Shown: positions 6,087-57,044, counted from the stretch's first letter. The stretch is DNA of 64,000 nt from Candidatus Moraniibacteriota bacterium (GCA_049297495.1 JBAQUL010000012.1:43616-107615); one strand, 5' to 3'. The notes: generated by a model not told the origin, from the sequence alone. Numbers and translations: made by a program.

Positions 6087-6225
6087 TGTCATCCTGAGCG
6101 GAGTCCGTACTCGGACGCAGTTGAAGGATCTGCTTGTGATAATCCTAGCCTTGCGATTTGTGGTAAGACTTGTGGTAACTCGAAGCAGATTCTTCGACTC
6201 CACTACATTTCGCTCAGAATGACAA
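6087..6225. repeat. MITE-like palindromic element, family A copy 1 (termini TGTCATCCTGAGCG ... CGCTCAGAATGACA, nested internal hairpins)
   Basis: About 140 bp intergenic element between two GT genes; near-identical second copy at 56904-57044; termini shared with the element at 33945-34065. Confidence 0.75.
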
Positions 6226-6230
6226 CCTTT

Positions 6231-7439
6231 TTATTCTTTGTTGTTCGCGAACAGTGTATTATACGCGCGTAAAAGTTCTTTTTGCGCTGAGGCTTGGCTA
6301 AAGAGGTAGCTCCCGGCGCGTTTTTGGCTTTCAGCTGACATTTCTTGGCGCAAAGCAAAATCATCAATAAGACTGACTACCGCTCTGGCAAATTCTTTTT
6401 CATTATTATTTTTGACGTAGATTGCTGCATTGCCCGCTGTCGTCTTAGCCTCTTTTAAATCGTAGGCGATAACTGGCAGTCCCGCAGTCATATACTCGAG
6501 AATTTTATTGTGCAGAGAATTATCCGTGTAGTCATTTTTTGGTTCCGGCATCAGGCCAATTTGCGAGGCATAAAAATAGGTCGAGATGATCTTAGCATTA
6601 GCCCAGCCGGTAAAGATGACATTATCTTCAATTTTATACTCCTTTGCCATTTTCACCAAGCGTTCAAAATCATCGCCATCACCCATAAGAACAAACCCGA
6701 TGTCAGTTCTTTTGAGTTCATGCACAATCACTTTTATGCTACGTAGAAGTTTATCAACTCCATCTTGCGGGCCCATTACACCCAAATATGAACAGGTGAA
6801 GCGATATTTTGCTTGAATTTTTTTGGTCAATTCTGTGTTGACTAATTCTGGGCTGATTTGAGTTGGGTCTGGCGCGGAACGGACAATGAAATTTTTTGCT
6901 CTTACTTTGACACGAGAAAGGGTTTTCTCTTGACCAGACTCGCAAGTCGCAAGATGAATGTCGCAAAAGGAATAACTCATGCGTTCAAGCGCCAGTAGAG
7001 CTTTATAGAAAAAATGTTGTTTAGTTTTTCCGAAGCGACAAAGAAGCATTTCCGGTGAGAGGTCATGTTGGTCATAGACAAATTTAACCCCGAATGGTTT
7101 GAAAAAAAGTGCGATAATAAAAAAGAAATCCGGCGGATTGGCAGAATGGATGATGGAAAAGCCACGAGTGAAGAAAACCTTCACTGTTAAATAGGAGGTA
7201 AGAATAAGCGCATAGGTATATTCGCAGAGATAATTAAGATAACCAATAGATTTCGGCGCCATCAAATAACGATATATGTGGATGCTGCCTGCTATTTCAA
7301 ATTTAGCTTGTTCCGGCTTTCTTGGGGAAATGATAGAGACAGTATAGCCGGATTTTTCCAGCGCTCGCGCTTCCATCATAATCCGGCGGTCTTGGGGGAC
7401 AGGCAGATTTTGGACTAAAAATAGAACGGATTTTTTCAT
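6231..7439 (-). CDS. Glycosyltransferase family 4
   Basis: 402 aa; typical GT4 N-terminal (VLFLVQNLPVP) and C-terminal GT-B domain; operon context. Confidence 0.65.
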   Translation of the reverse strand: MKKSVLFLVQNLPVPQDRRIMMEARALEKSGYTVSIISPRKPEQAKFEIAGSIHIYRYLMAPKSIGYLNYLCEYTYALILTSYLTVKVFFTRGFSIIHSANPPDFFFIIALFFKPFGVKFVYDQHDLSPEMLLCRFGKTKQHFFYKALLALERMSYSFCDIHLATCESGQEKTLSRVKVRAKNFIVRSAPDPTQISPELVNTELTKKIQAKYRFTCSYLGVMGPQDGVDKLLRSIKVIVHELKRTDIGFVLMGDGDDFERLVKMAKEYKIEDNVIFTGWANAKIISTYFYASQIGLMPEPKNDYTDNSLHNKILEYMTAGLPVIAYDLKEAKTTAGNAAIYVKNNNEKEFARAVVSLIDDFALRQEMSAESQKRAGSYLFSQASAQKELLRAYNTLFANNKE

Positions 7440-7444
7440 TTGAT

Positions 7445-8104
7445 TTAGGATTTTATAATTTTTCTGAGTATAAATAGTGCCGTTTCAATTATGATAGCAA
7501 AATCCAGAAAGATTGAATAATTCTCAATGTAATGAAGGTCGTGATCAATGTTTTCATGAATCGGTTTTTTGCGGTCAGCATGAATTTGCCAGAGCCCGGT
7601 GATTCCCGGCTTAACAAGAAGTCTTGTTCTTTCAAAAAGGCTATAATCTTTTGCAATGAATTCCATCTCTGGTCTTGGACCGACAATACTCATCTCACCT
7701 TTGAGCACATTTACAAATTGTGGCAACTCATCCAGCCCCGTGTCTCTTAAGAATTTTCCTACTGTAGTTATTCTTGCATCATTGCTTTTAGTTGGCGTGA
7801 CTGCATAGGGATTTGAATTGATATATAATGAGCGAAATTTATAGAGGCGAAAAAGTTCGCCATTTCTGCCGACTCTTTTTTGGGAAAAAATGATTGGCCC
7901 CTTTGATGTCATTTTTATGGCAATGGCAATTATCATTAGTATCGGAGAAGAAGTTACTAAAATTGCAAAAGACAGCATGATATCAATAGTGCGTTTGAGA
8001 AAGCCGGAGATTGTGCTGATGCCAAAATAATTCAGCTTAGCGGAGTTGTTCGCGATGCTGATTGAGGCATATTGGAGGTAATTTTCCGTGTTTAATCTGT
8101 TCAT
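7445..8104 (-). CDS. Polyprenyl-phosphate sugar phosphotransferase (bacterial sugar transferase, WbaP/WcaJ C-terminal-domain type), priming enzyme of the cluster
   Basis: 219 aa; N-terminal TM, conserved SIVGPRPE and KPGITGLWQ motifs of the Bac_transf family; first gene of the minus-strand operon. Confidence 0.8.
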   Translation of the reverse strand: MNRLNTENYLQYASISIANNSAKLNYFGISTISGFLKRTIDIMLSFAILVTSSPILMIIAIAIKMTSKGPIIFSQKRVGRNGELFRLYKFRSLYINSNPYAVTPTKSNDARITTVGKFLRDTGLDELPQFVNVLKGEMSIVGPRPEMEFIAKDYSLFERTRLLVKPGITGLWQIHADRKKPIHENIDHDLHYIENYSIFLDFAIIIETALFILRKIIKS

Positions 8105-8188
8105 GAGTGGTCAAAATTAGTCAATTAATTAACCGTCAATCATAGCGCATTTCGAGATCTTTGTCAAGCGCTGAAGATCTCCGGCTAT

Positions 8189-8217
8189 TGACAAATTTGG
8201 GATATGTGCTATATTGG
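8189..8217 (+). promoter_or_regulatory. Sigma70-like promoter TTGACA-16-TATATT with upstream TG (extended -10), serving the 8306 gene; RBS aaaggag 8 nt before the ATG
   Basis: Seen in sequence: ttgacaaatttgggatatgtgctatatt, followed by aaaaaggagtaaggattATG. Confidence 0.5.
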
Positions 8218-8305
8218 ATTGTTACAGGTTTTGACAGTAGTTTGACAAAAAAAACCGGCTCAAATCAGAGCCAAAACTAACCTCAATGAAAAAGGAGTAA
8301 GGATT

Positions 8306-8905
8306 ATGAAAAAAAGCATTTTCACTTTGGCAATGGTTGTATCTTTGACAATGGCGATGTTCTCGACCGCATTTGGGCGGTATGAGGACATCAGAGTTGT
8401 TCCTCGCGACTCAGAAACATATGCGTATGGAGTCGTAGGGATTAAGCTGTACCTGAACAGCAACAATGTTTGGGAGAAGCAACTTAATCCTTTCGGAGGA
8501 ACGCCCACGCCCGGATTTGATAATCCGGTATGGGCTGCGGCCGAAGCAATGACCCAGGCCAATACAACGCTGGGATCAGATGGCAAAACCCGTTATCCGG
8601 CGCCATGGATTTATCCGGCAGATGTTACAACAGCGCCGGCAATTTCCTATTATGTTTTTGGAGATGTCGGAGTTTTGGATGAGATTAGAAATGTCCTGTC
8701 AGGGACTGGCATCTCTGTATATTATAGCGATTCCGGTTATCCCGTTATGACGGAAACAGCTCTGGGAACCTCAAACACCGCGCTTGTTTATTCAATGGTG
8801 TCTGGTTTGGTGGCCTACATACCCGTTGAGAATCAGTCTGGCCAACTGATACTTGACGACAAATGGTTTAAGGCTCTGATTGCCGTCGATTCGTTCAAGT
8901 TCTGA
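8306..8905 (+). CDS. Secreted/surface protein of unknown function with an N-terminal signal peptide
   Basis: 199 aa; MKKSIFTLAMVVSLTMAMFSTAFG signal peptide; visibly higher GC than neighbours; strong promoter and SD. Confidence 0.6.
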   Translation: MKKSIFTLAMVVSLTMAMFSTAFGRYEDIRVVPRDSETYAYGVVGIKLYLNSNNVWEKQLNPFGGTPTPGFDNPVWAAAEAMTQANTTLGSDGKTRYPAPWIYPADVTTAPAISYYVFGDVGVLDEIRNVLSGTGISVYYSDSGYPVMTETALGTSNTALVYSMVSGLVAYIPVENQSGQLILDDKWFKALIAVDSFKF

Positions 8906-9041
8906 TGTATAGGGCCAATATATTGGAACAACACAGGTCGCTTTGTCTTTCTTAGCTAAGAAAGATGGAGCGGCCTGTTTTTACATTAAAGAATGCTTGA
9001 CAAAAAGCTAGGTTTAGTGTAGGCTGGACAGTTAATATAAT

Positions 9042-10439
9042 TTGGCAATAATAAGCTGTAAATCGTTAATTTTTATGCAAAAAAGTAATCGTAATTTTAT
9101 TCTATTTTGGATTTTCTCCATCCTATTTCTCATAGGCTGGTATTTTTATTGGCAAGTGAAGAATGATAAAGAATTTGGGACGATGAGTGCTGTTATCGAT
9201 TTTTTGCCAATGAATGAACTCAAAAAGGCCAAGTTTAAAACAATGGCCGGTTTTGCTGAGTATCTTTTTGCGAAAGACGGAGAGGAAAAAACGTTTATGT
9301 TGCTTTTCCAAAATAATATGGAACTCCGTCCCGGCGGGGGATACATTGGTTCGTTTGGAATTTTGAAAATGCAAGACGGAAAAGTTATGGATCTTTCCAC
9401 GCATGACCTTTCAAATTTTGATGGACGTGTTCCTGATGGTATCGTTCCTCCGTATCCGATCAAAGAAACTCTGCGCGTTTCGGACTGGAAGTTGCGCGAC
9501 TCGAATTTTTCTCCAGATTTCTTGGAGAATGCTAAAAAGGCCGATGAGTTTTATCGCTTGGGCCAAGGACAAGAAGATTTTGCAGGGATTGTGGCAATCA
9601 ATAGTAATGTTCTCAACTCTTTTCTCAAAGTGACGGGACCGGTGGAAATTCCCGGTTATCCAGGAACTTATGACGGTGAGAGTGCAGTTCTTGATTTGGA
9701 ATATCAAGTCGAACAGGGATCTTACAAGCAAGGCATCGAAAGGGGAGAAAGAAAGAGTATAATGAATCTTTTGGCAAAAGAAATCCAGAAAAAAGTTTTC
9801 ACACTTAGTATGAGTGAGAAAATAAAGCTTGCGGAAGTCATTTTGGATGACTTGAATCGTAAAGACATTCAATTATACTTCAAGGATGATAAATTGGAAA
9901 AACAGGCGCAGCTTGCGCAGTGGGATGGTGGTGTGGACAAAAATTGGTCAGAGGACTATCTGATGCTGGTTGATGCAAACATGGGATCTTTGAAAAGTGA
10001 TTACTATATGCGTCGCTCTTTTAACTATACGGTAGATTTGTCAGGAGATGTGCCGCGGGCTAACTTAAAAGTAACCTATAATCATACTGGGAAGGAGAAG
10101 AATTGGATGACAAAGGACTATCTGACTTATTTGCGCGTCTATGCTCCAAAAGGTAGTTGGCTTACGGATTCGAAGAATCTGGGCGAGAAGCGATTTGGCG
10201 ATGATCTCGGCAAGAAATATTTTGGAACGTTAGTGGGTGTTCCCTTGGGTCAAACGAAAACAATTGAATTTTTCTATGATTTGCCAAGAGCAGCAGTGGA
10301 AAATTATGACCTTTTGATCCAAAGACAATCTGGTTCTGGCGAAGTGAAGGGGGAAGTGACGATTATATATAAGAGTAAAAAGAAGATGGTCTATCAGATT
10401 GATCTCTCGAGCGATTGGAAATTGAGTGATAATCAATAA
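9042..10439 (+). CDS. DUF4012-like membrane-anchored protein (cell-envelope associated), paralog of 42093-43553
   Basis: 465 aa; N-terminal TM; conserved block FMLLFQNNMELRPGGGYIGSFG and LMLVDANMGSLKSDYYM shared with the 42093 ORF; alternative start possible at 9076. Confidence 0.5.
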   Translation: MAIISCKSLIFMQKSNRNFILFWIFSILFLIGWYFYWQVKNDKEFGTMSAVIDFLPMNELKKAKFKTMAGFAEYLFAKDGEEKTFMLLFQNNMELRPGGGYIGSFGILKMQDGKVMDLSTHDLSNFDGRVPDGIVPPYPIKETLRVSDWKLRDSNFSPDFLENAKKADEFYRLGQGQEDFAGIVAINSNVLNSFLKVTGPVEIPGYPGTYDGESAVLDLEYQVEQGSYKQGIERGERKSIMNLLAKEIQKKVFTLSMSEKIKLAEVILDDLNRKDIQLYFKDDKLEKQAQLAQWDGGVDKNWSEDYLMLVDANMGSLKSDYYMRRSFNYTVDLSGDVPRANLKVTYNHTGKEKNWMTKDYLTYLRVYAPKGSWLTDSKNLGEKRFGDDLGKKYFGTLVGVPLGQTKTIEFFYDLPRAAVENYDLLIQRQSGSGEVKGEVTIIYKSKKKMVYQIDLSSDWKLSDNQ

Positions 10440-10448
10440 TTAATTTTA

Positions 10449-10605
10449 GCCTCCTCGCCCTCCGGGAGAGGATGTCACGAGCACGTGACAGGTGAGGGCA
10501 AGGGCTATGAATTAAGAATAATCTAAGCTAATTTAGTTTTTGCTTGACATAGCACCCTTTCCCTCATCCGGCCTTCGGACACCTTCTCTCTGATGGAGAA
10601 GGAGC
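10449..10605. repeat. REP-like imperfect palindromic element, family C copy 1 (blocks cctcctc / gggagaggatgt / gacaggtgaggg / ccctcatccggcc / ccttctc)
   Basis: Shares ordered sequence blocks with 31564-31752; arms caggtgagggcaaggg and ccctttccctcatccgg form an imperfect inverted repeat about 55 nt apart. Confidence 0.55.
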
Positions 10606-10610
10606 TATAT

Positions 10611-10647
10611 AAAAAAATCCCCCGCTTTGGCAGGGGATTTTTTTATG
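10611..10647. terminator. Bidirectional intrinsic terminator (aaaaaaatcccc-cgctttggca-ggggattttttt) between convergent genes
   Basis: Seen in sequence: GC stem flanked by A7 and T7 tracts. Confidence 0.7.
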
Positions 10648-12145
10648 CTCCTCCAATTCCTAGGATTGGAACTGGTTCAGGGAAGACAAAGGAATTAAGG
10701 ATTGTGGCACCATCTTTTTCATCAGTAAAGAAGAGCTTTTCTAGGCCATTATTGTGGATGACAAAAGGTGTCTCTAGGCTGCCACTAATCAGATCCAGGC
10801 AGTTGCGATGATCGCGCGCGTCGAGTTCGATTATCTTTGTGTATTTTCCAACACTAAAAATGATGTGCTCATAGTCTTTGTACCATTGGATATTTCTTAG
10901 GTTTTCGGAGTAGCGTGTTATATTGTTCAGATCATTTTCATAACGAATTGGTTGTACGGTCCAATTACGAGTGTAGTATACAGAGATTTCGTTATTACTA
11001 TAAAAAAGCAATTTTTTCCCATCATTAGAAAAGTGCATTTCTGCTACTTGACTTCCGAGTGCTCGGAAATATTTTTCATTTTCTCCATAGTTATAGATAA
11101 AAAGATTTTGATTTTGATCAAGAAAGGCGATACGAAATTCGTCGTAAACGGTGATTCTTTTTATGGTTGGGTTTGTTGTATCAGGAAAGCTATTGGTAAT
11201 TTGAATTTTTTCCGATTTTCCATCAAGACTGGTCTTGAAAATAAGATTATTAGGCGATTGGACAAAATAAACACCGTTATAGGCCAAGTCGTATGCGCTG
11301 ATGTCGCTCGCGATTTTGGTTATGTCCGTTGCGTCTTTGAAATTTGCCCGAAAAAGCGATGTGCCCTCCAAAAAGAAGAGATAACCTTTTTCTTTTGGAT
11401 CCCACCTTACATAGCGAATATCATTTTTTCCAAAAAAAGTGTTTAGGTTTGTTGTGCTATTGTCACTAAGATCAATGACGAAATAGGCGGTCTGGAATTG
11501 ATTTTCCAGTGAACTTGTTTTTAATTCTACCGCATTATTTTTTTCCACAGGGACGGAAAGATAATTTTCATCCGGCGACCACTCGATATTTTCCTTCTTA
11601 TCCTCCGCAAGAAGTTTCCATCCAGTCAGTGTGTAATTGTTGATAACGAGTTTACTGTCCAGGTCTAATTCTTTTACCAAGAGTGCATTTTCTGTGTTGG
11701 TTGTGAAAGCAATGAAGCGATTCCTGGGTGACGTGAAAAATTTATCAATTCCACGTGTTGATTCATAGAGGGTTTTTTCGTAATTCTTTCTCGTCAGAAC
11801 GACATTCCAAAATTCACTAGAGACGCCACTGTGGACGTCAATTTTTTTATTCCAAGAATAAAAATCTTTTGCGGAGATTTCAATTTCGTAATCCGCAGGA
11901 AGGAGGCCCGAGAGGTTGAATGAGTTGTTGATTCTGTTTGGGGTAGCTGTTTCATTGGCATTGCCATTGAGCGTCGTAGTGATGTTTTGCGGATTAGCCT
12001 TAAAAGAAATCGTTCCGCTATAGACGAAAACACCTCGATGCCAATCGAAGCGGTAACCGCGAGCTTCCAAGACGATAATCGGGGTAATTATGAAGAAAAT
12101 TAAGACGAGTGACCAAAAAAATAGAGTACGTTTGAATCTTTCCAT
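10643..12145 (-). CDS. Membrane-anchored protein with a predicted beta-propeller (TolB/PD40-like) ectodomain, hypothetical
   Basis: 500 aa; N-terminal TM (FFWSLVLIFFIITPIIVL); repetitive beta-strand-rich sequence; similar architecture to 38840-40186. Confidence 0.4.
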   Translation of the reverse strand: MERFKRTLFFWSLVLIFFIITPIIVLEARGYRFDWHRGVFVYSGTISFKANPQNITTTLNGNANETATPNRINNSFNLSGLLPADYEIEISAKDFYSWNKKIDVHSGVSSEFWNVVLTRKNYEKTLYESTRGIDKFFTSPRNRFIAFTTNTENALLVKELDLDSKLVINNYTLTGWKLLAEDKKENIEWSPDENYLSVPVEKNNAVELKTSSLENQFQTAYFVIDLSDNSTTNLNTFFGKNDIRYVRWDPKEKGYLFFLEGTSLFRANFKDATDITKIASDISAYDLAYNGVYFVQSPNNLIFKTSLDGKSEKIQITNSFPDTTNPTIKRITVYDEFRIAFLDQNQNLFIYNYGENEKYFRALGSQVAEMHFSNDGKKLLFYSNNEISVYYTRNWTVQPIRYENDLNNITRYSENLRNIQWYKDYEHIIFSVGKYTKIIELDARDHRNCLDLISGSLETPFVIHNNGLEKLFFTDEKDGATILNSFVFPEPVPILGIGGA

Positions 12146-12269
12146 GGATAAATACTAGCTGGATTTGCGGTTTTTGTCTAGCCTGGTATTTAGGGTGCGC
12201 CCTAACTTGAAAAAGGGGCTTTATCGGGTTAATTTCAGCTAGAGGAAGGAGTGGGAGACGCTCTGACGA

Positions 12270-12296
12270 TTGACTAAGTAATAATTGTGCTATAAT
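12270..12296 (+). promoter_or_regulatory. Possible sigma70-like promoter TTGACT-15-TATAAT upstream of 12334
   Basis: Seen in sequence; the spacer is short (15 nt), so this is weak. Confidence 0.3.
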
Positions 12297-12333
12297 AAAT
12301 CATAAGGATAGGCGAATTAACTGAAGTTTTTAT

Positions 12334-13074: not shown

Positions 13075-13110
13075 GGCATAAATTGTGACGCATCCAGGAC
13101 ACATATTTTT

Positions 13111-13607: not shown

Positions 13608-13687
13608 TACTACCCAAATTTAGAAATATGCAAAAAGGCTGGCAGATGCTAGCCTTTTTTGATTTGTTTTGCTATTATGAGTGTAAT

Positions 13688-14389
13688 ATGCAATTCCACA
13701 TTGTTACAATTTTTCCGCGTATTTTAGACTCTTATCTCAAAGAGTCGATTATTGGGCGCGCCCGAAAAAACGGAGCAATTGAAGTTTTTGCTCATAATCT
13801 ACGGGATTATACGACAGACAAGCACGGGAAAGTCGATGATACGCCCTATGGCGGTGGAGCGGGGATGGTGCTTCAGGTTCAGCCGATATATGCTTGTGTG
13901 GAAGCGATAAAATCCAAATTTCCAATTTCTAACCTTGCCTACCGGCAGGCAGGTTTCCAATCAAATCCAAAATCCAAAATCCAAAATCCAAAAGTTAGAA
14001 CGATTTTATTTTCCGCCAAAGGCAAAAAATATACGGAGCGGTCGGCGGAAAGACTGGCGAAATATGACAAGCTGATTTTAATCTGTGGACGGTATGAGGG
14101 TGTGGACGAGCGTGTAGCACGGAACATTGCTGATGAAGAAATCTCTATTGGAGATTATGTTCTTACGGGAGGTGAACTTCCGGCGATGGTGCTCATTGAT
14201 TCAGTGACGCGGCTCTTGCCTGGAGTTTTAGGCAATGATGCCAGTTCCAAATACGAGTCGCACAGTCGAAAAAATTATAAAGAGCATCCTCAATATAGCA
14301 AACCAGCCAGTTTCAATGATTGGGAAGTCCCGGCAGTCCTTCTGGGCGGAAATCATGGTGAGATAGAAAAATGGCGAGAAAAAAATTAA
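13688..14389 (+). CDS. trmD: tRNA (guanine37-N1)-methyltransferase TrmD (ORF opens at 13628; conserved N-terminus starts at 13688)
   Basis: MQFHIVTIFP..., GGGAGMV, RYEGVDERV, LTGGELPA motifs of SPOUT TrmD; contains an extra loop encoded by a 4x heptanucleotide repeat. Confidence 0.85.
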   Translation: MQFHIVTIFPRILDSYLKESIIGRARKNGAIEVFAHNLRDYTTDKHGKVDDTPYGGGAGMVLQVQPIYACVEAIKSKFPISNLAYRQAGFQSNPKSKIQNPKVRTILFSAKGKKYTERSAERLAKYDKLILICGRYEGVDERVARNIADEEISIGDYVLTGGELPAMVLIDSVTRLLPGVLGNDASSKYESHSRKNYKEHPQYSKPASFNDWEVPAVLLGGNHGEIEKWREKN

Positions 14390-15523: not shown

Positions 15524-15532
15524 TTTTTTAAT

Positions 15533-25506: not shown

Positions 25507-26172
25507 ATGCGTAAAACAGCATTTGCCAATGGTGAATATTATCATATTTATAATCGCGGGGTGGATAAGCGAGAGGTGTTTTTGTGTGATGGAGATTATA
25601 AACGATTTATTGTGGGGATGAATGAATTTAATTGTAGTAAGGCTATTGGTAGTTTGCGAGATAAGCGGGTACGTGAGAATCAGGAGTTGAGCTCCTGGAG
25701 CTCCAGGAGCTCAACTCCTGATTCTGTTCTACAGTCTTTAGTTCAAATTATCGCCTATTGTCTGAATTCAAATCATTATCACTTAATTCTGAGGCAAGTT
25801 AGCGAAAGGGGTATTGAAAAGTTCATGCACAAACTAAGTACTGGCTATACTAATTATTTCAATAAAAAATCTAATCGAACAGGCGCGCTTTTTCAAGGAC
25901 GCTACAAATCCATTCATATTAACTCCAATGAATATCTGTTGCATCTGTCGGTTTACGTAAACGCCAATCACGCGGTTCATAATTACGAAGAAAAAGACTG
26001 GCCATATTCTAGTTATTTAGATTATACTGGGAAGAGAACGGGAAAACTCTGTGAAAAAGTAACAATCTTGGGGCAGTTTGATGACAATCTACTGGAATAC
26101 GAAAAGTTTATGCGAAATAATACGAACTATTTTAGGGAGAAAAAGGAAATGGAGAAATATATTTTGGAATAG
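25507..26172 (+). CDS. HUH Y1 transposase of the COG1943 / REP-associated tyrosine transposase (RAYT, IS200-like TnpA) family
   Basis: GEYYHIYNRGVDKREVF...DYKRF (motif I), NHYHLIL (HUH), YFNKKSNRTGALFQGRYKSI...EYLLHLSVYVNANHAVHNYEEKDWPYSSY (catalytic Tyr region); contains an in-frame 16-codon palindromic insertion. Confidence 0.85.
   Translation: MRKTAFANGEYYHIYNRGVDKREVFLCDGDYKRFIVGMNEFNCSKAIGSLRDKRVRENQELSSWSSRSSTPDSVLQSLVQIIAYCLNSNHYHLILRQVSERGIEKFMHKLSTGYTNYFNKKSNRTGALFQGRYKSIHINSNEYLLHLSVYVNANHAVHNYEEKDWPYSSYLDYTGKRTGKLCEKVTILGQFDDNLLEYEKFMRNNTNYFREKKEMEKYILE
25677..25724. repeat. 48-bp perfect palindrome (gaatcaggagttgagctcctggag | ctccaggagctcaactcctgattc) inside the RAYT coding sequence, in frame (encodes NQELSSWSSRSSTPDS)
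   Basis: Seen in sequence; exact reverse complement of the two 24-nt arms. Confidence 0.9.
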
Positions 26173-28998: not shown

Positions 28999-29385
28999 AT
29001 GCAAGGTACAGCAAGCGTCATCCTGAGCATCTTGGTTGTTGTAATAGTAATTTTGCTTTTTAAAGGGGGGAAATCTAATTATAATAAGGCGAATAATTTT
29101 TTAAAGTTATTAAAAGAAAAAGATTTTGAAAAATGGAAAGAACTTGGCGAGCCGAGGATAATGTTAATCATGCCAAATGCAATCATTACAAACAAGGGTC
29201 CTTATATAAGTGATATTCGGGCGTATGTTAAATATGCTAATTTTGGGGATTTCTCTGATCAAGAATTGAAAATTGCCCTTGAGGATGTCCGAAACGTTTT
29301 TTCCATTAAACCTTTTGATCTTATTGCAGTGATTGCTATTTATGCCATATTTATAGGAGCGCTTGTTTACGCGACATTATTTTAA
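28999..29385 (+). CDS. Small two-TM membrane protein, hypothetical (overlaps murB start by 23 nt)
   Basis: 128 aa; hydrophobic N- and C-terminal helices. Confidence 0.35.
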   Translation: MQGTASVILSILVVVIVILLFKGGKSNYNKANNFLKLLKEKDFEKWKELGEPRIMLIMPNAIITNKGPYISDIRAYVKYANFGDFSDQELKIALEDVRNVFSIKPFDLIAVIAIYAIFIGALVYATLF

Positions 29386-33050: not shown

Positions 33051-33932
33051 TTGGCATCTATGGAAACAAAAACGCTACTTCGAAAAATCAAAAAAGAATT
33101 TCCAGAAATTAATTGGGAATCAGCCAGGAAAACTAAGCAAAATTGGGATTTTGACGTTGTTATTTTAGATAATATGTATGTGTTTCGCTTTGCTAAAGAT
33201 AAGGGAGGAGAAAAAAGGCTTGCTAATGAAATTAAGCTTTTAGATTATTTGGCAAATAAAACATTAATGCCTGTACCTAATTATATTTTCAGATCGAAAA
33301 GTGGAAAATTTGCCGGGTACAAAATTCTAAAAGGTGAAAAATTAGCGTTAATGGAATTTCGTAAATTACCTTATTCAGTTAAGAAAAAGATGGCGGTTGA
33401 GTTTGCTGATTTTCTAAATGTATTGCATGGTGTTTCGAAGAGGCACTTCGGAAATTTTGGCATAGAGACAAAATCGAAGGGCGACGAAATAGAGAAGTTA
33501 TTCGGAAGGTTAAAAAGAACTGCTTTTCCGAAACTAAAAAAACAGGAAACGAAAGATATAGCGAATTTTTTTGATCAATATGACGCATTGATTAAAAAAC
33601 CATATAAAAGAGTTTTAGTTCACGGTGATCTTACTAGGGAAAATATAATTTTTGAAAATAATAAAATCACTGGCGTAATTGATTTTTCCAATTTTGGCGT
33701 TAATGAGCCTGCCTTAGACTTTAAAGGGTTTTGGGGCTTTGGCTTAGGATTTGTTAAGATGGTTTATGAAAATTATAAAGATAATGGTGATAATTTTTTC
33801 ATAGAACGCTCTAGATTATATCATAGGATGATTGGGCTATATGTTTTAGATGGGACAGTATCATGCAAACACAGCCCTTTAAGTTTTGAAAAAGGATATA
33901 AGCTATTTAGAAAATATTTTTATATTAAATGA
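33051..33932 (+). CDS. APH/ChoK-fold kinase (candidate anomeric sugar kinase)
   Basis: 293 aa; LVHGDLTRENIIFENN catalytic loop and VIDFSNFG motif. Confidence 0.55.
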   Translation: MASMETKTLLRKIKKEFPEINWESARKTKQNWDFDVVILDNMYVFRFAKDKGGEKRLANEIKLLDYLANKTLMPVPNYIFRSKSGKFAGYKILKGEKLALMEFRKLPYSVKKKMAVEFADFLNVLHGVSKRHFGNFGIETKSKGDEIEKLFGRLKRTAFPKLKKQETKDIANFFDQYDALIKKPYKRVLVHGDLTRENIIFENNKITGVIDFSNFGVNEPALDFKGFWGFGLGFVKMVYENYKDNGDNFFIERSRLYHRMIGLYVLDGTVSCKHSPLSFEKGYKLFRKYFYIK

Positions 33933-33944: not shown

Positions 33945-34065
33945 TGTCATCCCCGCGGAGGCGGGGATCCAGCGGACATGTTCTGTTTGAATAGTTAATC
34001 TAAACATTAGGCAAATATAGTTAATTTTGTCTTCCTACTAGATTCCCGCCTTCGCGGGAATGACA
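33945..34065. repeat. MITE-like palindromic element, family B: termini tgtcatccccgcggaggcggggatcc ... gattcccgccttcgcgggaatgaca (each terminus itself a GC hairpin), between convergent genes
   Basis: Seen in sequence; same TGTCATCC / GAATGACA termini as family A elements at 6087 and 56904. Confidence 0.7.
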
Positions 34066-34140
34066 CAGCGAGGTCGGTTTGAAATAGAAAAACAAAAAAG
34101 CACTCCAATCAGAGTGCTTTTTTTGATTTCATGAATTTTC

Positions 34141-50043: not shown

Positions 50044-50241
50044 TTAAAAACTATAAGCGCTAGACATAACACTCAAAAACCAAGGAATGATGGCAACGAG
50101 GGCAATGAGCGGAAGAACGATGGTGGCGATGGTGATAATCATTGTCCATAGAAAATATTTACGCATCTTTTCAACTGAGGCGTAAATAAGGTCGAGCTTT
50201 TGGTCTTGCTCGGAGAGTTTTTGTTCGAGTTGGGGGTCCAT
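50044..50241 (-). CDS. Small (65 aa) C-terminally TM-anchored protein, hypothetical
   Basis: Hydrophilic coiled N-half, hydrophobic C-terminal helix IITIATIVLPLIALVAIIPWFL; the overlapping plus-strand ORF looks non-genic. Confidence 0.3.
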   Translation of the reverse strand: MDPQLEQKLSEQDQKLDLIYASVEKMRKYFLWTMIITIATIVLPLIALVAIIPWFLSVMSSAYSF

Positions 50242-50403
50242 AGAATTTTAAAATTATACTAATTATTCTAAATTTTGGTCATAGGCAACAAAGGTCATTG
50301 GCAGTAAGTTAAGTTATAGGTTTTAGGTTAAAGGTCTAACTTTTTTCTAATAACTTATAGCTAATGCCCAGACCTACCGCCAGTAACCCATGTTCCTTTT
50401 GAC

Positions 50404-51699
50404 TTATTCTTCCACCTCAATCCCCAAAGGCAATTCTTTGACAATTTCCGGCACCGGCATTTCTTGTGCTTTGTTTAGCTTTCTTTCAATTGTGCGACTT
50501 TTTCTGGATGCGCTTTCAATGGTATTGGATGCTTCTTGCAATTTTTTGTGCGTCTTGTCGAGCAGATCGCCAAAAGTGGAAAATTCGGTTTTGATCGCGC
50601 CTAGCGTCGCCCAAACATCGCTTGATCTTTTTTCAATGGCCAAAGTGCGAAAGCCCATCTGAAGGCTATTGAGAATGGCCGCGATAGTAGTTGGTCCGGT
50701 TACGATTACCTTATAGTCTCTCTGCAGCGTGTCAGCAAGGCCTGGACGGCGCAGAACTTCCGCATAGAGGCCTTCGATGGGCAAAAAGAGAATGCCAAAA
50801 TCAGTCGTGTATGGCGGATCGAGGTATTTTTCTTTGATATCTTTCGCCTCTGATTTGATGCGTACCTCAAGTGCTTTGCCAAGGGAGGCAATCAAGGCAA
50901 TATCACACTTTTCTTCTGCATCAATGAGATTTTGAAAATCTTCCAAGGGGAACTTAGCGTCGATTGGGAGCCAAATATTTTTCAGCTTTTCATCTTTGGC
51001 GGGAATTTTTATCGCAAATTCGACTCGATCATTGGAATCTTTTTTGGTGGCAACATTTTTTTCATATTGTTCAATCGTCATGATTTGGTCAAGCAACGTG
51101 CCAAGTTGCACCTCACCCCAAGTACCGCGGGTTTTGACATTTTGTAAAACTTTTTTGAGATCACCCACTCCACTTGCCAGTGTTTGCATTTCGCCGAGGC
51201 CCTTGTGTACCAGTTCCAGTCGTTCACTGACCAACTTGAAAGATTCACCCAAGCGTTTTTCTAGGGTGGCGTGCAATTTTTCGTCCACGGTCTCGCGCAT
51301 TTTTTCCAATTTTTCACTGTTGTCCTTTTGAATATTATCCAAGCGTTTTTCAATCGTTTCGCGGACATGTTCCATTCGTTTGTCATTTTTTTCAATCACT
51401 TCGCCGAGTTTATCAGAAAAACCAGAGAAGTTTTTGTTTTGCACTTCCGTGAGAGTGAATACCTGGCGATTGAGTGAATCGCCAAAATCCTTGATTGATT
51501 TCCTGATTTCTTCGCGTGTTTCTTTTCCGGAGATTGACGTTTCTGTCCGATTGGCAGACATTTCTTCTCGAAGAGCGCGCCCGATCCGCTCGTTACTTTC
51601 CTTGATGAGAGCGGAATTGTCACTTGATTTTCGCATAAAAATCAAAACCAAAACGGCAAAGTTAAAAACAAGAGAAACAACAACTAGAATTGTGAGCAT
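50404..51699 (-). CDS. rmuC: DNA recombination protein RmuC
   Basis: N-terminal TM, long coiled-coil, conserved KTRGTWGEVQLGTLL and C-terminal RmuC nuclease-like domain. Confidence 0.75.
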   Translation of the reverse strand: MLTILVVVSLVFNFAVLVLIFMRKSSDNSALIKESNERIGRALREEMSANRTETSISGKETREEIRKSIKDFGDSLNRQVFTLTEVQNKNFSGFSDKLGEVIEKNDKRMEHVRETIEKRLDNIQKDNSEKLEKMRETVDEKLHATLEKRLGESFKLVSERLELVHKGLGEMQTLASGVGDLKKVLQNVKTRGTWGEVQLGTLLDQIMTIEQYEKNVATKKDSNDRVEFAIKIPAKDEKLKNIWLPIDAKFPLEDFQNLIDAEEKCDIALIASLGKALEVRIKSEAKDIKEKYLDPPYTTDFGILFLPIEGLYAEVLRRPGLADTLQRDYKVIVTGPTTIAAILNSLQMGFRTLAIEKRSSDVWATLGAIKTEFSTFGDLLDKTHKKLQEASNTIESASRKSRTIERKLNKAQEMPVPEIVKELPLGIEVEE

Positions 51700-51814
51700 A
51701 ATGATTTTTCAAAATGGTTATAGTCCTATGATAGCACTAAACGGAATGGGGGTAAAATTAGGAAATTAATGGATCGTTTTGAAATTATAAGCCACTCATG
51801 CTAGGATAGATTTT

Positions 51815-52375
51815 ATGGAACTGACTGATAGACAATTGATCGAGGATTTTTTAGCGGGAGACGATGCTTCTTTTGAGCTTTTGGTAAAAAAATACTTGAA
51901 ACCGGTGTATAATTTCCTCTACCGTTTAACTGGGGGTGATGTGGCGCTGGTAGATGACTTGACGCAAGAGACATTTTTGAAGGCTTGGAAAAATATTAAA
52001 CGCTATAATTTGGAAAAAAACTTTAAAGTCTGGATATTTACGATTGCAAAGAATAATGCTCGTGATACTTGGAAACGGAAAAAAACCTTGCCTTTTGTGC
52101 TTTTTGAAAATAGTGATGGGTATAATAAGCTCGATGAAGTTGCCGAGGAAAAACCTTTGCCGGATGAAATCTTGGAGCGAATTGAGTCAGAAGGGGAGTT
52201 GGACGCAAAATTAAAAAAACTTCCAAAGAAATATCAGACCATTCTTTTTATGCGCTACAAAGATGATTTGAGCGTGGCGGAAATAGCTGAAATATTGTCA
52301 ATCCCCTATAACACAGCCAAAAGTCAACACCAAAGGGCATTGGGCCTGCTGAGAAATGAACTTTTGCACCCATAA
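51815..52375 (+). CDS. ECF-type RNA polymerase sigma factor (sigma-70 region 2 + region 4)
   Basis: region 2 (YRLTGGDVALVDDLTQETFLKAW) and region 4 HTH (LSVAEIAEILSIPYNTAKSQHQRALGLLR). Confidence 0.85.
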   Translation: MELTDRQLIEDFLAGDDASFELLVKKYLKPVYNFLYRLTGGDVALVDDLTQETFLKAWKNIKRYNLEKNFKVWIFTIAKNNARDTWKRKKTLPFVLFENSDGYNKLDEVAEEKPLPDEILERIESEGELDAKLKKLPKKYQTILFMRYKDDLSVAEIAEILSIPYNTAKSQHQRALGLLRNELLHP

Positions 52376-52480
52376 TTAAATCCCAATCGTAGTACAGTTG
52401 AGACGTGCGCGTTTGTTTGCTTCCTATGTTTTTTTCATTTTCATAGAGCATCAGGCGCGCAAGTCCCTGGAAAACATTTT

Positions 52481-52897
52481 ATGAGTAACAAATTAAATCA
52501 ACTATTTGAGGGCATTAATGAAATAGATCCGCCAATAGCGCTGGCGGGTTTTGTTTTCTCCGAGATTGCGAAAGAAAAAAATAGAATAACGAAAAGACAG
52601 TTATTTTTTTCCTATGTTAGTTTCGCTGGATCATTTACTTTAGCAATTTATGTGGGAACTGTGTTTGGACAAGCATTTTTACAATCGGAGTTTTGGACAA
52701 TGCTTTCTCTCGTGTTTTCAGATATTGCTATTGTTATGAGAAATTGGGATACTTTTTTTCTTTCACTCCTGGAAACTTTCCCTGTGGCGCATGCAATGAT
52801 TCTCTTAGTTCCGATTTTTCTGATGCTAGCTTCTGCGAGCTATTACTTTAATAGTAAGACGAATTATAGGTATAAGTATAATTTAATAACATCTTAA
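52481..52897 (+). CDS. Putative membrane anti-sigma factor cognate to the ECF sigma
   Basis: 138 aa; short cytoplasmic N-terminus then 3-4 TM helices; position directly downstream of the sigma gene; no motif evidence. Confidence 0.35.
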   Translation: MSNKLNQLFEGINEIDPPIALAGFVFSEIAKEKNRITKRQLFFSYVSFAGSFTLAIYVGTVFGQAFLQSEFWTMLSLVFSDIAIVMRNWDTFFLSLLETFPVAHAMILLVPIFLMLASASYYFNSKTNYRYKYNLITS

Positions 52898-52899
52898 AT

Positions 52900-53454
52900 A
52901 TGAGCACACAAGAATTGGTTAAATCAAGAAATTTCAAAATAGCGCTGGGTGTCGTCGGAGCGCTGCTTGTTGTTTTTGCCAGCTTTTCAAGCGGTGTCGC
53001 CGTGGGGTTACACAAAGCAAAATTTTCCTACCAGTGGGGCCAGAATTACGAACGTAATTTTATGGGTCCGGGGAAAAGAGCTGGCGGAATGATGGACGCT
53101 GATGATCGTGGACAGATGATGGGTGTCCGTCGTGATGGGGGAATGATGGATTTTCCAAGGAATATCGAGGGGCGGGATTTCCGTAATGCACATGGCATTG
53201 CCGGAACGATAATTTCCGTCGCGGACAATAATTTGATTATCAAGGATCGTGATAATAAGGAAAATACTGTTGCCGTGACGGATAGAACGATCATTAAAGA
53301 CCATATGCTCGATGTGAAGATCTCAGACCTAAAAGCTAATGATCAAATTGTGGTTATGGGAAGGCCTGATGATCAAGGTATCGTTAATGCTGATTTGATT
53401 CGAGTTTTTTGTTGTGGCGAGTCAAGTGAAATAACCAATAGTAATAATAACTAA
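52900..53454 (+). CDS. Membrane-anchored protein with a Gly/Met-rich linker and a beta-rich C-terminal domain; paralog of 57095-57544
   Basis: N-terminal TM; C-terminal domain alignable to 57095 ORF (GTIISVADNNLIIKDRDNKENTV...ANDQIVVMG vs GQIISKDDTSITIKSRDGGSKIV...VGEDVMVTG). Confidence 0.45.
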   Translation: MSTQELVKSRNFKIALGVVGALLVVFASFSSGVAVGLHKAKFSYQWGQNYERNFMGPGKRAGGMMDADDRGQMMGVRRDGGMMDFPRNIEGRDFRNAHGIAGTIISVADNNLIIKDRDNKENTVAVTDRTIIKDHMLDVKISDLKANDQIVVMGRPDDQGIVNADLIRVFCCGESSEITNSNNN

Positions 53455-53459
53455 TTTGT

Positions 53460-54605
53460 ATGAAAACGAAAAGAATCTATATTGCGGTTATTGCGTTAGT
53501 TCTGATTGGAGGAGGCTACTATTGGTATAAAAAATCAAATACGGCGAGCACTGCTCCGACATATAAAACAGCTGTGGCGGAAAAAGGCATGCTTACGAGT
53601 TCTATTTCTGGATCAGGCAATGTGATTGTTGATCAGTTGGCAACAGTTGATCCAACCATTTCTGGTACAGTGGCAAACTTGGCTGTTAAGATTGGTGATC
53701 CGGTCAAAAAGGGTCAGCTACTTTTTACGATTGTAAACGATCAATTGGGAGTGAGTGCGGCAAAAGCCGGTGCGAGTTATGCGCAATCCAAAAAATCTCT
53801 CGATGATCAAAAATATGCCAAAAAGCAAGCTGAGGCTGATTATAAGGCTAACCCGAAGAAACTCTTAAAAGATAAAGTGGCACTAGCGGATAACGCGATT
53901 GATATTGCCGAGCAGAATTTGGCAGTCTCTGCGGCAGATTATCGCAATCAACTTGCTGATGCGGCGAAAAGAAAGGTGACAGCGCCGATTGATGGAACTG
54001 TTAACGAGGTAAATATAAAAAATGGTGACGATCTTGGAAAAATTTCTTCTGGATCAACAAAACTTTCACCAATAATCATTGGAGATCTCGGAACGCTGAA
54101 AGCTTCAGTTTCGGTTAACGAAGTTGATATTCCCAATGTGGCCGAGGGTCAAAAGGTGATGTTCAAATTTAGTGCGATAGATGACTTAGAGCTTTCCGGC
54201 AAAGTGGAAAAAATTGATTCACTAGGGACGATAACACAAGGAGTTGTGACGTATAACGTAACAATTGGTTTTGATGTGACGGATCCAAGAATAAAGCCTC
54301 AAATGAGTGTTTCGGCCAATATCATCACTGCGGTTAAGCAAAATGTGCTGCTTGTGCCAGACTCTGTTGTCAAAACCCAGAATGGCAAGAGCTATGTTGA
54401 AGTTTTGAATGATGGTAATGCGCTTCCTGTTCAAAGGACTGTGGAAGTGGGATTGTCCAATAATACTGACACGGAAATTGTTAGTGGCATTAATTCTGGC
54501 GATAAGGTGGTTACCCAAACAATAAGTTCGACGACTAAGGCTGCTTCGGCAACAGCTTCAAGTGCTGGCAGTCGAGGTGGAATGGGAGGATTTTTGGGAC
54601 ACTAA
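53460..54605 (+). CDS. Periplasmic adaptor (membrane fusion protein, HlyD/MacA family) of a MacAB-type ABC efflux system
   Basis: N-terminal TM, biotinyl/lipoyl-like hairpin motifs (SGSGNVIVDQLATVDP...KGQLLFTI), beta-barrel and C-terminal Gly-rich tail. Confidence 0.75.
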   Translation: MKTKRIYIAVIALVLIGGGYYWYKKSNTASTAPTYKTAVAEKGMLTSSISGSGNVIVDQLATVDPTISGTVANLAVKIGDPVKKGQLLFTIVNDQLGVSAAKAGASYAQSKKSLDDQKYAKKQAEADYKANPKKLLKDKVALADNAIDIAEQNLAVSAADYRNQLADAAKRKVTAPIDGTVNEVNIKNGDDLGKISSGSTKLSPIIIGDLGTLKASVSVNEVDIPNVAEGQKVMFKFSAIDDLELSGKVEKIDSLGTITQGVVTYNVTIGFDVTDPRIKPQMSVSANIITAVKQNVLLVPDSVVKTQNGKSYVEVLNDGNALPVQRTVEVGLSNNTDTEIVSGINSGDKVVTQTISSTTKAASATASSAGSRGGMGGFLGH

Positions 54606-54707
54606 GTCGTGGTGTTGAAATAATTTTAAACAATCAACGATCAGTTTTCATTGAAGTTACAATCAACCAGGTATCAATTATTTATTTTTTATAAATTTAA
54701 AAATTAT

Positions 54708-54755
54708 TTAATTGAAAATTGATTGAAAATTGAAAATTGCGAATTGAAAATTTTT
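54708..54755. repeat. Tandem TTGAAAA/ATTGAAA heptamer-like repeats (at least 5 copies) spanning the start of the ABC ATPase gene
   Basis: Seen in sequence: aattgaaaattgattgaaaattgaaaattgcgaattgaaaatttttt. Confidence 0.6.
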
Positions 54756-55462
54756 TTGTGATTGAATGCAGAAATTTAGTGAAAACCTATATTAATGGCG
54801 ACGTGAAAACCAATGCTTTGAGCGGAGTGTCTTTTGGAATTAAAAAAGGTGAATTTGTTTCAATCATTGGCCCATCTGGTAGTGGAAAATCAACTCTGAT
54901 GCACATTTTGGGTGCGCTAGATTCGCCAACTTCAGGACAATATTTTTTGGATGGATTCGAGGTGTCAAAGTTGGATGATGACGAATTGTCTGATTTAAGG
55001 CGAAATAAAATCGGATTTGTTTTTCAGTCGTTCAATCTCTTGCCAAGGACCACTGTCTTGCGAAACGTTATGCTGCCACTGCTGTATTCTGGAATGCCAC
55101 ATCCAGAGCGAGAAGAAAAAGCCAAAGCCTGCCTGCGTTATGCTGGGATGGAAGAAAGTAAATTTGGCAATCTTTCCAATCAATTGTCCGGTGGACAGAT
55201 GCAGCGGGTAGCGATTGCTCGTGCGCTTATTAATGATCCGGCGATAATCTTGGCGGATGAGCCGACAGGAAATCTGGATACAAAAACCAGCGCAACTGTG
55301 ATGAAAGCTTTTCAGGAATTAAACCAAAAAGGGCACACCATTATTCTTATTACTCACGAAATGGATGTGGCTGATTGTGCTAATCGAATAATCTATGTTC
55401 GTGATGGTGTGATTGAAAAAGATGTTTTAAATAAACCGAAAGACCATTTTTTGCCACAATAG
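54737..55462 (+). CDS. ABC transporter ATP-binding protein (MacB/LolD-like); start likely TTG 54737 or GTG 54758
   Basis: Walker [10 protein letters not shown], signature [15 protein letters not shown], Walker [13 protein letters not shown]-loop ITHE. Confidence 0.9.
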
Positions 55463-55657
55463 GACTTGCGCATTTACCCGAAAAAAATTCTCAAGAGCGC
55501 GGCGTTCTCATTTCAATGAGTTTTCTGCTGTTTTACTGTAAGTCTTATGTGCTAAGTAAGATAAGTGTGCGAACTTTTTTCGGGCAAACACGCAAGTCAT
55601 GCATAGGTAGTTTCGTTTCTAATTTAAGCGTGAGCTGGCTGACAATATTTTTGTTAC

Positions 55658-56896
55658 ATGCTTCATGCTATATGCTACATGATAGTCGATTTATTAAAAG
55701 AAACAGTCTGGTCACTTGCTGGCAATAAAGTCCGTTCAGGACTAACAATTCTGGGAATTGTAATTGGAATTGCTTCCGTTATCACTATGGTAGCGATTGG
55801 GCAGGGGGCGAAAAATTCAGTTGAGAGCAGCATTGAATCAATCGGATCAAATTTGATCATGATCACGCCAGGAGCACAGAGGGTAGGTGGAATCAATCAG
55901 GGCAGTGGCAGTTCGCAAACACTGACAGTCGAAGACGCAACTGCGATTAAGGATGAAATAATGAACGTGAAAGCAGTCGCTCCATCAGTGACGAAGCGCT
56001 CGCAGCTCACTGCCAAAGGGAATAATACTAATACTCAAATAATCGGGACTAATGCAGACTATTTAGTCGCAAGAAACGTTACAATTGACACCGGATCTTT
56101 TTTTAGCGAACAACAGATGAAAAGTTCGGCGAAAGTTGCAGTCCTTGGTCCAACTACGAGGGATGATTTGTTCGGTGAAAATGTGAATCCGATTGGACAA
56201 ACTATTCGGACGAACAATATGGATTTCCAAGTAATCGGTGTGACAACTTCCAAGGGAGGTTCTGGATTTAGTAATCAAGATGATACTGTGTATGTGCCGC
56301 TAACCAGTGCTCAGCATTATTTGTCCGGAAGTGTCTACGTGAATAATATTAGCGTAGCCGCCGAGGATCAGACTCTGATGGCGTCGGTTCAGGATCAAAT
56401 TTCCGAGCTACTCTTGAAGCGTCATAAGATTAATGATCCAACTCAAGCTGATTTTAGTCTGATGAATCAAAATGATATTATTGCGACGGCAACGAGTATC
56501 ACAGGGACTTTTACTATTTTACTTTCTTCAATTGCCGGAATTTCACTTTTAGTAGGGGGAATTGGCATTATGAATATGATGCTTACGACAGTCACAGAGC
56601 GGACACGAGAAATCGGTCTGCGAAAAGCAGTTGGTGTGAGGAAAATTTACATTAATTTGCAGTTTTTAGCTGAAGCGGTACTGCTAACATTTTTAGGCGG
56701 CGCGATGGGGATACTTCTAGGTTGGGGGGCTTCTGCGCTTATTACTCACTTCGTCAGTAGCTTGACAACTAGTATTTCCATGTCCGCTGTGCTTTTGGCT
56801 TTCGGCGTATCAGCTGGGGTAGGAATTATTTTTGGATTTTACCCTGCCCGCAGAGCGGCAAATTTGAGCCCTATTGAAGCTTTGCGATATGAGTAA
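55658..56896 (+). CDS. ABC transporter permease, MacB/FtsX family (probable start at 55679)
   Basis: N-terminal TM, large periplasmic domain, C-terminal FtsX 3-TM bundle. Confidence 0.8.
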   Translation: MLHAICYMIVDLLKETVWSLAGNKVRSGLTILGIVIGIASVITMVAIGQGAKNSVESSIESIGSNLIMITPGAQRVGGINQGSGSSQTLTVEDATAIKDEIMNVKAVAPSVTKRSQLTAKGNNTNTQIIGTNADYLVARNVTIDTGSFFSEQQMKSSAKVAVLGPTTRDDLFGENVNPIGQTIRTNNMDFQVIGVTTSKGGSGFSNQDDTVYVPLTSAQHYLSGSVYVNNISVAAEDQTLMASVQDQISELLLKRHKINDPTQADFSLMNQNDIIATATSITGTFTILLSSIAGISLLVGGIGIMNMMLTTVTERTREIGLRKAVGVRKIYINLQFLAEAVLLTFLGGAMGILLGWGASALITHFVSSLTTSISMSAVLLAFGVSAGVGIIFGFYPARRAANLSPIEALRYE

Positions 56897-56903
56897 CAAG
56901 CAA

Positions 56904-57044
56904 ATGTCATCCTGAGCGAAGTCCGTACCCGGACGAAGTCGAAGGATCTGCTTGCGGTTATCGCAGGTTATATAAACATAGCCAAAGCTTGCGGTGGTGG
57001 ATAGTAGATTCTTCGACTCCGCTGCGCTACACTCAGAATGACAA
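56904..57044. repeat. MITE-like palindromic element, family A copy 2 (tgtcatcctgagcgaagtccgtacccggacg ... cgctacactcagaatgaca)
   Basis: Near-identical termini and internal hairpin arms to 6087-6225; located immediately after the permease stop. Confidence 0.75.

Follow-up and report, generated by a model that had tools for sequence, protein, structure and literature searches.

We analysed a 64-kb window of DNA (G+C content 39.8%) from a Candidatus Moraniibacteriota bacterium (GCA_049297495.1, JBAQUL010000012.1:43616-107615), in which three intergenic repeat elements, here called A1, A2 and B, lie just behind the 3' ends of genes. A preliminary description, made from the sequence, had presented them as a family resembling miniature inverted-repeat transposable elements (MITEs), with two A copies and a relative of a second type, B. 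All three are present, at coordinates that differ by at most one base from those first given, and each is a head-to-head dimer of short hairpin units, arranged as follows.

Positions 6087-6224, no strand assigned: element A1, a head-to-head dimer (tags outward) in which a 57-nt spacer separates two hairpin units of the A type.
Positions 6087-6130, plus strand: left unit of A1, with a TGTC tag, the stem ATCCT.../...AGGAT, the nested loop hairpin GTCCGTACTCGGAC and a C after the stem.
Positions 6188-6224, minus strand: right unit of A1, which reads TGTCATTCTGAGCGAAATGTAGTGGAGTCGAAGAATC on the minus strand.
Positions 33945-34065, no strand assigned: element B, a head-to-head dimer of NTS/dRS3-like units with a 65-nt AT-rich spacer.
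Positions 33945-33972, plus strand: left unit of B, TGTCATCCCCGCGGAGGCGGGGATCCAG, with a CCA tail; an identical unit is present in the related locus L150.
Positions 34038-34065, minus strand: right unit of B, which reads TGTCATTCCCGCGAAGGCGGGAATCTAG on the minus strand.
Positions 56905-57043, no strand assigned: element A2, a head-to-head dimer of A-type units with a T-run on its far side.
Positions 56905-56948, plus strand: left unit of A2, with a TGTC tag, the stem ATCCT/AGGAT followed by a C, and the nested hairpin GTCCGTACCCGGAC.
Positions 57007-57043, minus strand: right unit of A2, which reads TGTCATTCTGAGTGTAGCGCAGCGGAGTCGAAGAATC on the minus strand.

The placement at gene ends that had been proposed was borne out for all three elements, which lie 6-12 nt from a stop codon. 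A1, flanked by two minus-strand genes, is 6 nt past the stop of the minus-strand open reading frame (ORF) 6231-7439; A2 begins 8 nt past the stop of a MacB-type permease ORF (55658-56896; the true start of the permease is 7 codons inside this 412-aa ORF); and B sits between convergent genes, 12 nt past the stop of ORF 33051-33932. A1 and A2 are, as claimed, alike at their ends, with 88% identity in the left 58 nt and 81% in the right 52 nt, and divergent in the centre. With the tags outward and the units facing each other, the whole element is able to fold as a single hairpin, and the folding proposed earlier as a check indeed gave one long hairpin for each element on both strands; relative to dinucleotide shuffles the z-scores lie between -5.4 and -7.8 (A1, -7.4 and -5.7; B, -7.4 and -7.8).

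The six units share a single plan (6/6) of a 5'-TGTC tag, an AT-initiated stem, a loop, the closing stem and a C, with the tails CCA in the left unit of B, CTA in its right unit and CTG in the A units. The A-type consensus is TGTCATYCTGAGCG...CGAAGRATC, where the stem ATYCT.../...AGRAT (ATYCTGAG...CGAAGRAT) has 5 Watson-Crick pairs extended by G.A/A.G mismatches, followed by a loop of 11-24 nt that often holds a nested hairpin; in the left units of A1 and A2 the loop contains the additional hairpin GTCCGTACYCGGAC. The B units are 28 nt long, with a GC-rich 8-bp stem and a 4-nt loop (ATCCCCGC/GCGGGGAT with the loop GGAG; ATTCCCGC/GCGGGAAT with the loop GAAG). What had been described as 8-nt termini is the tag plus the first stem bases of an oriented hairpin unit of the repetitive extragenic palindrome (REP) type, not the terminal inverted repeat (TIR) of a transposon, and the supposed asymmetry of the ends (left ...ATCC, right GAAT...) comes down to a mere C/T polymorphism, relatives often having TGTCATCC...GGATGACA or the reverse. 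The window contains the string TGTCATYC 12 times, where chance would give 3.8 occurrences (0 of 100 shuffles reached 12), and a closing stem follows it at only 6 window sites, which are the six ends of A1, A2 and B. Consensus folding of 17 copies showed the conserved pairs to be essentially invariant; this invariance, together with a variable centre that cannot be aligned, makes covariation uninformative. Elsewhere in the window, 13 nt that match an A-type unit's beginning (CGTCATCCTGAGC, 29016-29028) stand at the start of ORF 28999-29385 and have no closing stem; they are either a chance match or a relic unit. A search of the window for tRNA and tmRNA genes found none.

REPs have been split into GTAG- and CGTC-tagged superfamilies (Di Nocera, 2013; PMC3733652). 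According to that study, CGTC REPs carry an unpaired terminal CGTC tag, often in the variant TGTC or else CCTC, an 8-9 bp stem that starts with complementary A and T, a 4-5-nt loop and mostly a CCA tail; they occur predominantly as head-to-head dimers with foldable spacers of 20-100 bp, at most 20 bp from ORF 3' ends, and include the dRS3/NIMEs of Neisseria and RPE-4/RPE-6 of Rickettsia. No transposase or other dedicated enzyme was found for them, they never flank tyrosine-transposase genes, and they have no link to RAYT genes (PMC3733652). In the window, TGTC starts 6/6 units, and all three elements have a CCA-like tail, the head-to-head arrangement with a foldable 20-100 bp spacer and a position within 20 bp of an ORF 3' end. 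The lack of a RAYT link is a further shared feature. The B units fall inside the published stem and loop ranges and resemble CGTC-1 in their 8-bp stem, 4-nt loop and CCA tail, whereas the A units, although they start with AT, fall outside both ranges, their loops being far longer than the 4-5 nt of the four published families.

An enzyme has since been connected with one branch of this superfamily (Chenal, 2025, Nat Commun; PMC11893778). There dRS3 was extended to the 28-nt NTS CGTCATTCCCGCGMAVGCGGGAATCYRG and to a degenerate Ssn-related motif (SRM), and SRM/NTS copies were found to flank ssnA, a 94-aa GIY-YIG gene, across phyla. SsnA binds the hairpin only as single-stranded DNA (ssDNA) and in one orientation, does not bind RNA, depends for binding above all on the C after the palindrome, and cleaves a few nt 5' of the tag, for which the three bases that precede the palindrome (GTC) count most; it lowers transformation by NTS-bearing DNA, and the propagation by Ssn of its own repeats was raised as a hypothesis only (PMC11893778). 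The right unit of B equals the NTS consensus at 27/28 positions, and when we scanned the window by regular expression with the published SRM pattern, HGTCWYN(0-2)YYVSBRHN(0-5)WNVSBRGN(0-2)RNCYNB (PMC11893778), this unit (34038-34065) was the sole match, so that 1/6 units is a formal member; GTC directly 5' and C directly 3' of the palindrome are present in 6/6. No literal A-type string was found in the literature searched, including the supplements of Di Nocera (2013) and Chenal (2025), and a search with the literal B-type string, found only within a Neisseria construct, pointed to dRS3. As unit types, A and B both belong to one known superfamily, and the elements are, in our judgement, probably head-to-head pairs of CGTC/TGTC-tagged REP (dRS3/NTS/SRM) hairpin sites whose partner is a GIY-YIG Ssn nuclease encoded elsewhere in the genome.

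The gene for such a nuclease was found between family-A ends in relatives of the window. In the metagenome-assembled genome (MAG) bin-1411, of which one locus (L130) is syntenic with window positions 768-8637 at 85-92% identity, another locus (L133) has family-A ends around a 93-aa GIY-YIG ORF (Pfam PF01541, E 2e-13), ends that include the junctions GAAGGATCTGC/GCAGATCCTTCGACT and the hairpin GTCCGAGTACGGAC. A ends stand on both sides of a GIY-YIG gene also in the LacPavin MAG (L251), in sequencing run SRR28062512 (L250) and in metagenome contigs (L165-L167), which gives six relatives or related metagenome populations in which A termini enclose a GIY-YIG gene. The Moranbacteria nuclease is 43.8% identical to the gonococcal SsnA orthologue (tblastn E 2e-17; pairwise blastp E 1e-26), itself confirmed among NTS repeats, a homology that makes it a putative member of the Ssn (cd10448) clade. 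NCBIfam has no specific model for it, and a search of solved structures gave only weak UPF0213 GIY-YIG matches. Y17 and E64, whose mutation abolishes SsnA catalysis (PMC11893778), are invariant in the alignment. The spacers of most short copies resemble the 5'/3' untranslated regions of the ssn element above shuffled controls (z >2 in 15/20), a modest signal that fits an origin of the short copies by loss of the ORF.

As for the window's own genome, its permease (P0001) is 100% identical to a protein of the Candidatus Moraniibacteriota MAG GCA_049286865.1, and the L250 nuclease (P0127) has four NCBI accessions, each about 300-1000 away from one of the four P0001 permease accessions. Because these accessions are adjacent, the same four MAG submissions are taken to encode both P0127 and P0001, and SRR28062512 holds both the L250 nuclease contig and a contig identical to the window permease region; an Ssn nuclease thus appears to be encoded in the MAG to which the window belongs. 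Other Moranbacteria GIY-YIG genes (L125, L144/L151) are more distant, being about 32-36% identical to it, and the two that were inspected (L125, L151) have no flanking units. The different, 90-aa GIY-YIG gene at L125 (6350-6950, LacPavin MAG) lies between partial tRNA-like repeats beside an apparently intact tRNA gene, again without TGTC units, which suggests a homing-type insertion in a tRNA locus.

The units are numerous in these relatives and concentrated around the nuclease genes. A family-A 21-mer, scanned across species-representative genomes, matched 42 stretches in unrelated genomic contexts, almost all of them in Candidatus Moranbacteria MAGs (12 matches in bin-1411, 9 in LacPavin), where by our own estimate about one would be expected by chance, and 418 kb of Moranbacteria DNA contain 90 A-type units. 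The earlier view of a dispersed repeat family whose ends are conserved while the interior varies is supported, and related genomes hold the family in many copies. A metagenome scan with the nuclease yielded 80 Ssn-relative loci that were kept (46-89% identity); a unit lies within 300 nt of the gene in 51/80 and on both sides in 35/80, almost always of the A type, and the density of units is 3.2/kb within 300 nt of the gene as compared to 0.19/kb farther out (about 17-fold). Among the matches listed, A-type units are common in viral contigs. The stem variant tracks the protein clade, with 59.9% identity within and 56.0% between types, a difference reached in 0/1000 permutations; an ATGCT...AGCAT stem, for example, pairs with one protein group. 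Shared ancestry contributes to this correlation. The Moranbacteria nuclease is also 56% identical to a GIY-YIG protein of a Planktothrix plasmid that is flanked by A-type dimers. On that plasmid (L164; Planktothrix agardhii p1, NZ_LR882964.1, 18.2-19.7 kb) the Ssn-family gene is accompanied, besides the dimers, by tandem truncated TGTCATTCTGAG stubs, and its neighbours are an MmeI-type restriction-modification gene and DISARM drmA, which places it inside a defence island.

Comparison with relatives revealed turnover at individual sites. A filled locus (L162) differs from its empty counterpart (L122) by a clean indel of 162 nt between flanks that are 85% identical, and A2 is absent from two relatives whose permease is 89% identical (L248/L249), where the permease stop abuts the next gene; the comparison with insertion-free sites that had been recommended thus found such sites. 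In a closer relative (L247, permease 96% identical) the A2 site is occupied and has gained two nested small palindromes, the element at the A1 site of L130 is inverted in place with 44 extra nt on one side, and the L150 element is replaced by unrelated sequence in L125. At the B site, synteny in relatives breaks directly after the conserved terminator, and for this reason no clean empty B site was scored. Directly downstream of A2 lies one of two paralogous small DUF5666-like genes (57095-57544 and 52900-53454; weak Pfam matches); it is missing together with A2 from the relatives with the 89% permease, so that the insertion relative to those genomes spans both.

Several other explanations were weighed against these data. 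The first regards the elements as primarily RNA elements, terminators or 3'-end mRNA stabilisers selected at gene ends, with their behaviour as DNA repeats incidental. The position of all three 6-12 nt after a stop codon, their very stable hairpins and the T-run after A2 are what such elements would show, REPs elsewhere affect mRNA 3' ends, and CGTC REPs share the placement (PMC3733652). However, the terminator role suggested by the preliminary description is not indicated by a consensus terminator scan, negative at all three elements, and B adjoins a separate, canonical terminator (34094-34123). Rfam gave nothing at its gathering threshold in the whole window, one match on A1 having a chance-level E-value. 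Nor is orientation to transcription kept, A1 and A2 being opposite and the A1 orthologue flipped; the elements are missing at the same gene ends in close relatives; and the conserved positions are those needed by an ssDNA nuclease that does not bind RNA. We consider an RNA element as the primary identity unlikely, and a secondary effect on mRNA 3' ends possible.

A second explanation holds that the elements are REPINs mobilised by the RAYT-like (REP-associated tyrosine transposase-like) Y1 transposase at 25507-26172. REPIN-RAYT systems, reportedly the work of Bertels and Rainey, of Nunvar and of Ton-Hoang, resemble what we see in their inverted REP doublets that form a long hairpin, the hallmark of a REPIN, in a single-copy enzyme gene flanked by repeats, in the lack of target duplication and in vertical persistence with local turnover; and a Y1_Tnp-like ORF is indeed present, with a match to Pfam PF01797 at E 4e-7 and to NCBIfam NF047646 at 28 bits (cutoff 80). 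Yet its flanks contain no TGTC units, only an upstream hairpin of which the window holds no second copy, the tag is TGTC and not GTAG, CGTC REPs never flank tyrosine-transposase genes (PMC3733652), and it is around genes for a GIY-YIG nuclease, rather than an HUH/Y1 transposase, that strong enrichment of the units is seen. Mobilisation by this RAYT is accordingly decidedly unlikely in our view. The preliminary description saw no cognate transposase with matching ends, and the window's RAYT-like gene indeed shows no association with the units; the cognate enzyme is probably a GIY-YIG ssDNA nuclease and not a transposase. The RAYT-like ORF itself contains, in frame, a perfect 50-nt palindrome (25+25 nt; 25676-25725) between the N-terminal YHIYNRG and the HYH (HUH) motifs, all of the Pfam match (residues 79-153) lying downstream; it may be a palindrome that was inserted or else an artefact of assembly.

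Closest to the original proposal is a classical MITE origin, in which the elements would descend by deletion from an insertion sequence and a DDE-type transposase, recognising TGTCATCC/GAATGACA as TIRs, would mobilise them in trans. Short, non-coding, multi-copy elements of about 120-140 bp with inverted ends, filled and empty sites in different strains and a longer gene-bearing relative with the same ends would suit this explanation, and the TG...CA termini are superficially like the ends of DDE elements. Unlike MITEs, however, the elements show no target-site duplication: 32/34 dimers have no direct repeat of at least 2 nt at their junctions, and the remaining two have one of 2-3 nt within AT-rich flanks. 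What looks like a TIR is the tag, together with the stem, of a unit that folds on itself and is also found singly and clustered, and the only gene found between matching ends encodes the 93-aa GIY-YIG nuclease, a protein without known strand-transfer activity. Matching ends 250-4000 bp apart, surveyed in the first 162 loci, enclose no recurrent cargo of transposase size, although ORFs between the ends were not examined. A classical MITE is therefore very unlikely. What survives of the non-autonomous mobile element is its polymorphism between relatives and the existence of a gene-bearing version with the same ends, so that the idea was partly right; the nature of the ends, the enzyme and the class differ from what was proposed. 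Finally, that the elements are ancestral intergenic hairpins alike by chance is next to inconceivable, for although only three copies lie within the 64-kb window and a related MAG likewise has an element at the A1 site, the 21-mer recurs in 42 unrelated contexts, A-type units are abundant in Moranbacteria DNA and sites differ between relatives.

If the elements are paired Ssn sites, a mechanism can be put forward. The SsnA homologue of the lineage lies between A-type units with the same ~45-nt ends as the window copies, and because these ends enclose the nuclease, the 139-nt A copies look like gene-less (REPIN- or MITE-like) relatives of a nuclease-bearing element, with B as a second unit type of the same class. 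Recognition by the Moranbacteria Ssn would cover A-type units, perhaps also those of the B type, and would take place while the DNA is in single-stranded form, as in replication, repair or the uptake of DNA. With the tags outward, two cleavage sites would fall just outside the element, on opposite strands. Such recognition may underlie the spread of the elements, to which the absence of target duplication and the AT-rich sites just after stop codons would correspond, and might also yield scattered ssDNA cleavage sites through which recombination with incoming DNA could be modulated; effects on mRNA ends, if there are any, would be secondary. Mobilisation by Ssn is the step we infer from sequence comparison. 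More broadly, we suggest, tentatively and with less than even confidence, that the A-type unit represents a large unnamed Ssn specificity class, present in Patescibacteria, on plasmids of cyanobacteria, in viral contigs and in many lineages from soil and freshwater, and that the family is driven by a GIY-YIG ssDNA nuclease, not by a transposase. If true, this would answer the question left in 2013 of what propagates CGTC-type REPs.

A number of points weigh against this account. The 64-kb window itself contains no ssn or GIY-YIG gene (tblastn found nothing below E 0.9), and the presence of ssn in the same genome is implied by the adjacency of accessions and the shared sequencing run, no contig having been read directly. 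All four A-type units (4/4) miss the SRM pattern, as does the left unit of B (by one loop position); it follows that the case for recognition of A-type units by Ssn is one of genomic association, which shared ancestry partly confounds, and the use of one nuclease for both A and B units goes no further than a perhaps. No experiment in the literature shows Ssn moving its repeats, the role demonstrated in Neisseria being the cleavage of transforming ssDNA. The L162/L122 indel, moreover, carries 18 and 7 extra bases beyond the tags, and the limits of the mobile unit are thus not fixed.

Set beside the NTS/SRM-SsnA system, the elements share the oriented hairpin with its 5' (C/T)GTC tag, AT-initiated stem and C after the stem, the occurrence of the motif on both sides of the nuclease gene, and the nuclease itself, which at 44% identity to gonococcal SsnA keeps Y17 and E64; we also list hundreds of intergenic copies per genome among the likenesses. 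They differ in the host, here Patescibacteria (Moranbacteria), neither 'Patescibacteria' nor 'Candidate Phyla' occurring in the main text of PMC11893778, and in the dominant A-type unit, which lies outside the SRM pattern. They differ from CGTC REPs as published in that A ends enclose a GIY-YIG gene, where the 2013 study found no dedicated enzyme. This is, then, a known type of system in a new phylum, with a dominant unit type outside the published motif definition.

The reading of the elements is thereby corrected from orphan MITEs or RAYT cargo to probable sites of recognition by an ssDNA nuclease family that was characterised only recently, and the Ssn system is placed in the Candidate Phyla Radiation. 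Members of this radiation, whose genomes are very small, are presumed to depend on taking up DNA. As A-type units escape the published pattern, the system is probably more widespread than current SRM counts indicate, and gene-bearing and gene-less elements with identical ends, together with filled and empty sites, offer a concrete, testable case for the idea that Ssn spreads its own repeats. The units should also be masked in annotation, because they seed spurious ORFs: the plus-strand ORF 5706-6272 (188 aa), which crosses A1 while the flanking genes lie on the other strand, is almost certainly such a product.

The window contains further palindromic sequences. A second, unrelated family of inverted repeats of about 140 bp is represented at 4857-5002 and 55463-55598, with arms (T/G)GACTTRCGYRTTTRCC(N)GAAAAAA and long hairpins (z -7.1 and -4.2); the copy that lies upstream of the permease gene is missing from the corresponding position in the relatives with 96% (L247) and 89% (L248) permease identity, and a solo arm occurs at L130 5405-5435, beside the A1-orthologous element. 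The near-perfect 20-nt palindrome CCTGCCTRCCGGYAGGCAGG is dispersed in Moranbacteria DNA (13934-13953 in the window; L247 3847-3866; L125, L143, L151 and many others) and is found nested within A-type units at the GAAG|GATC position. The window copy lies in frame within trmD (ORF 13628-14389), in an inserted-looking segment (...SNLAYRQAGFQSNPK...) with its own inverted AT-rich arms, and this segment of the TrmD coding sequence resembles the intragenic palindromic elements of Rickettsia.

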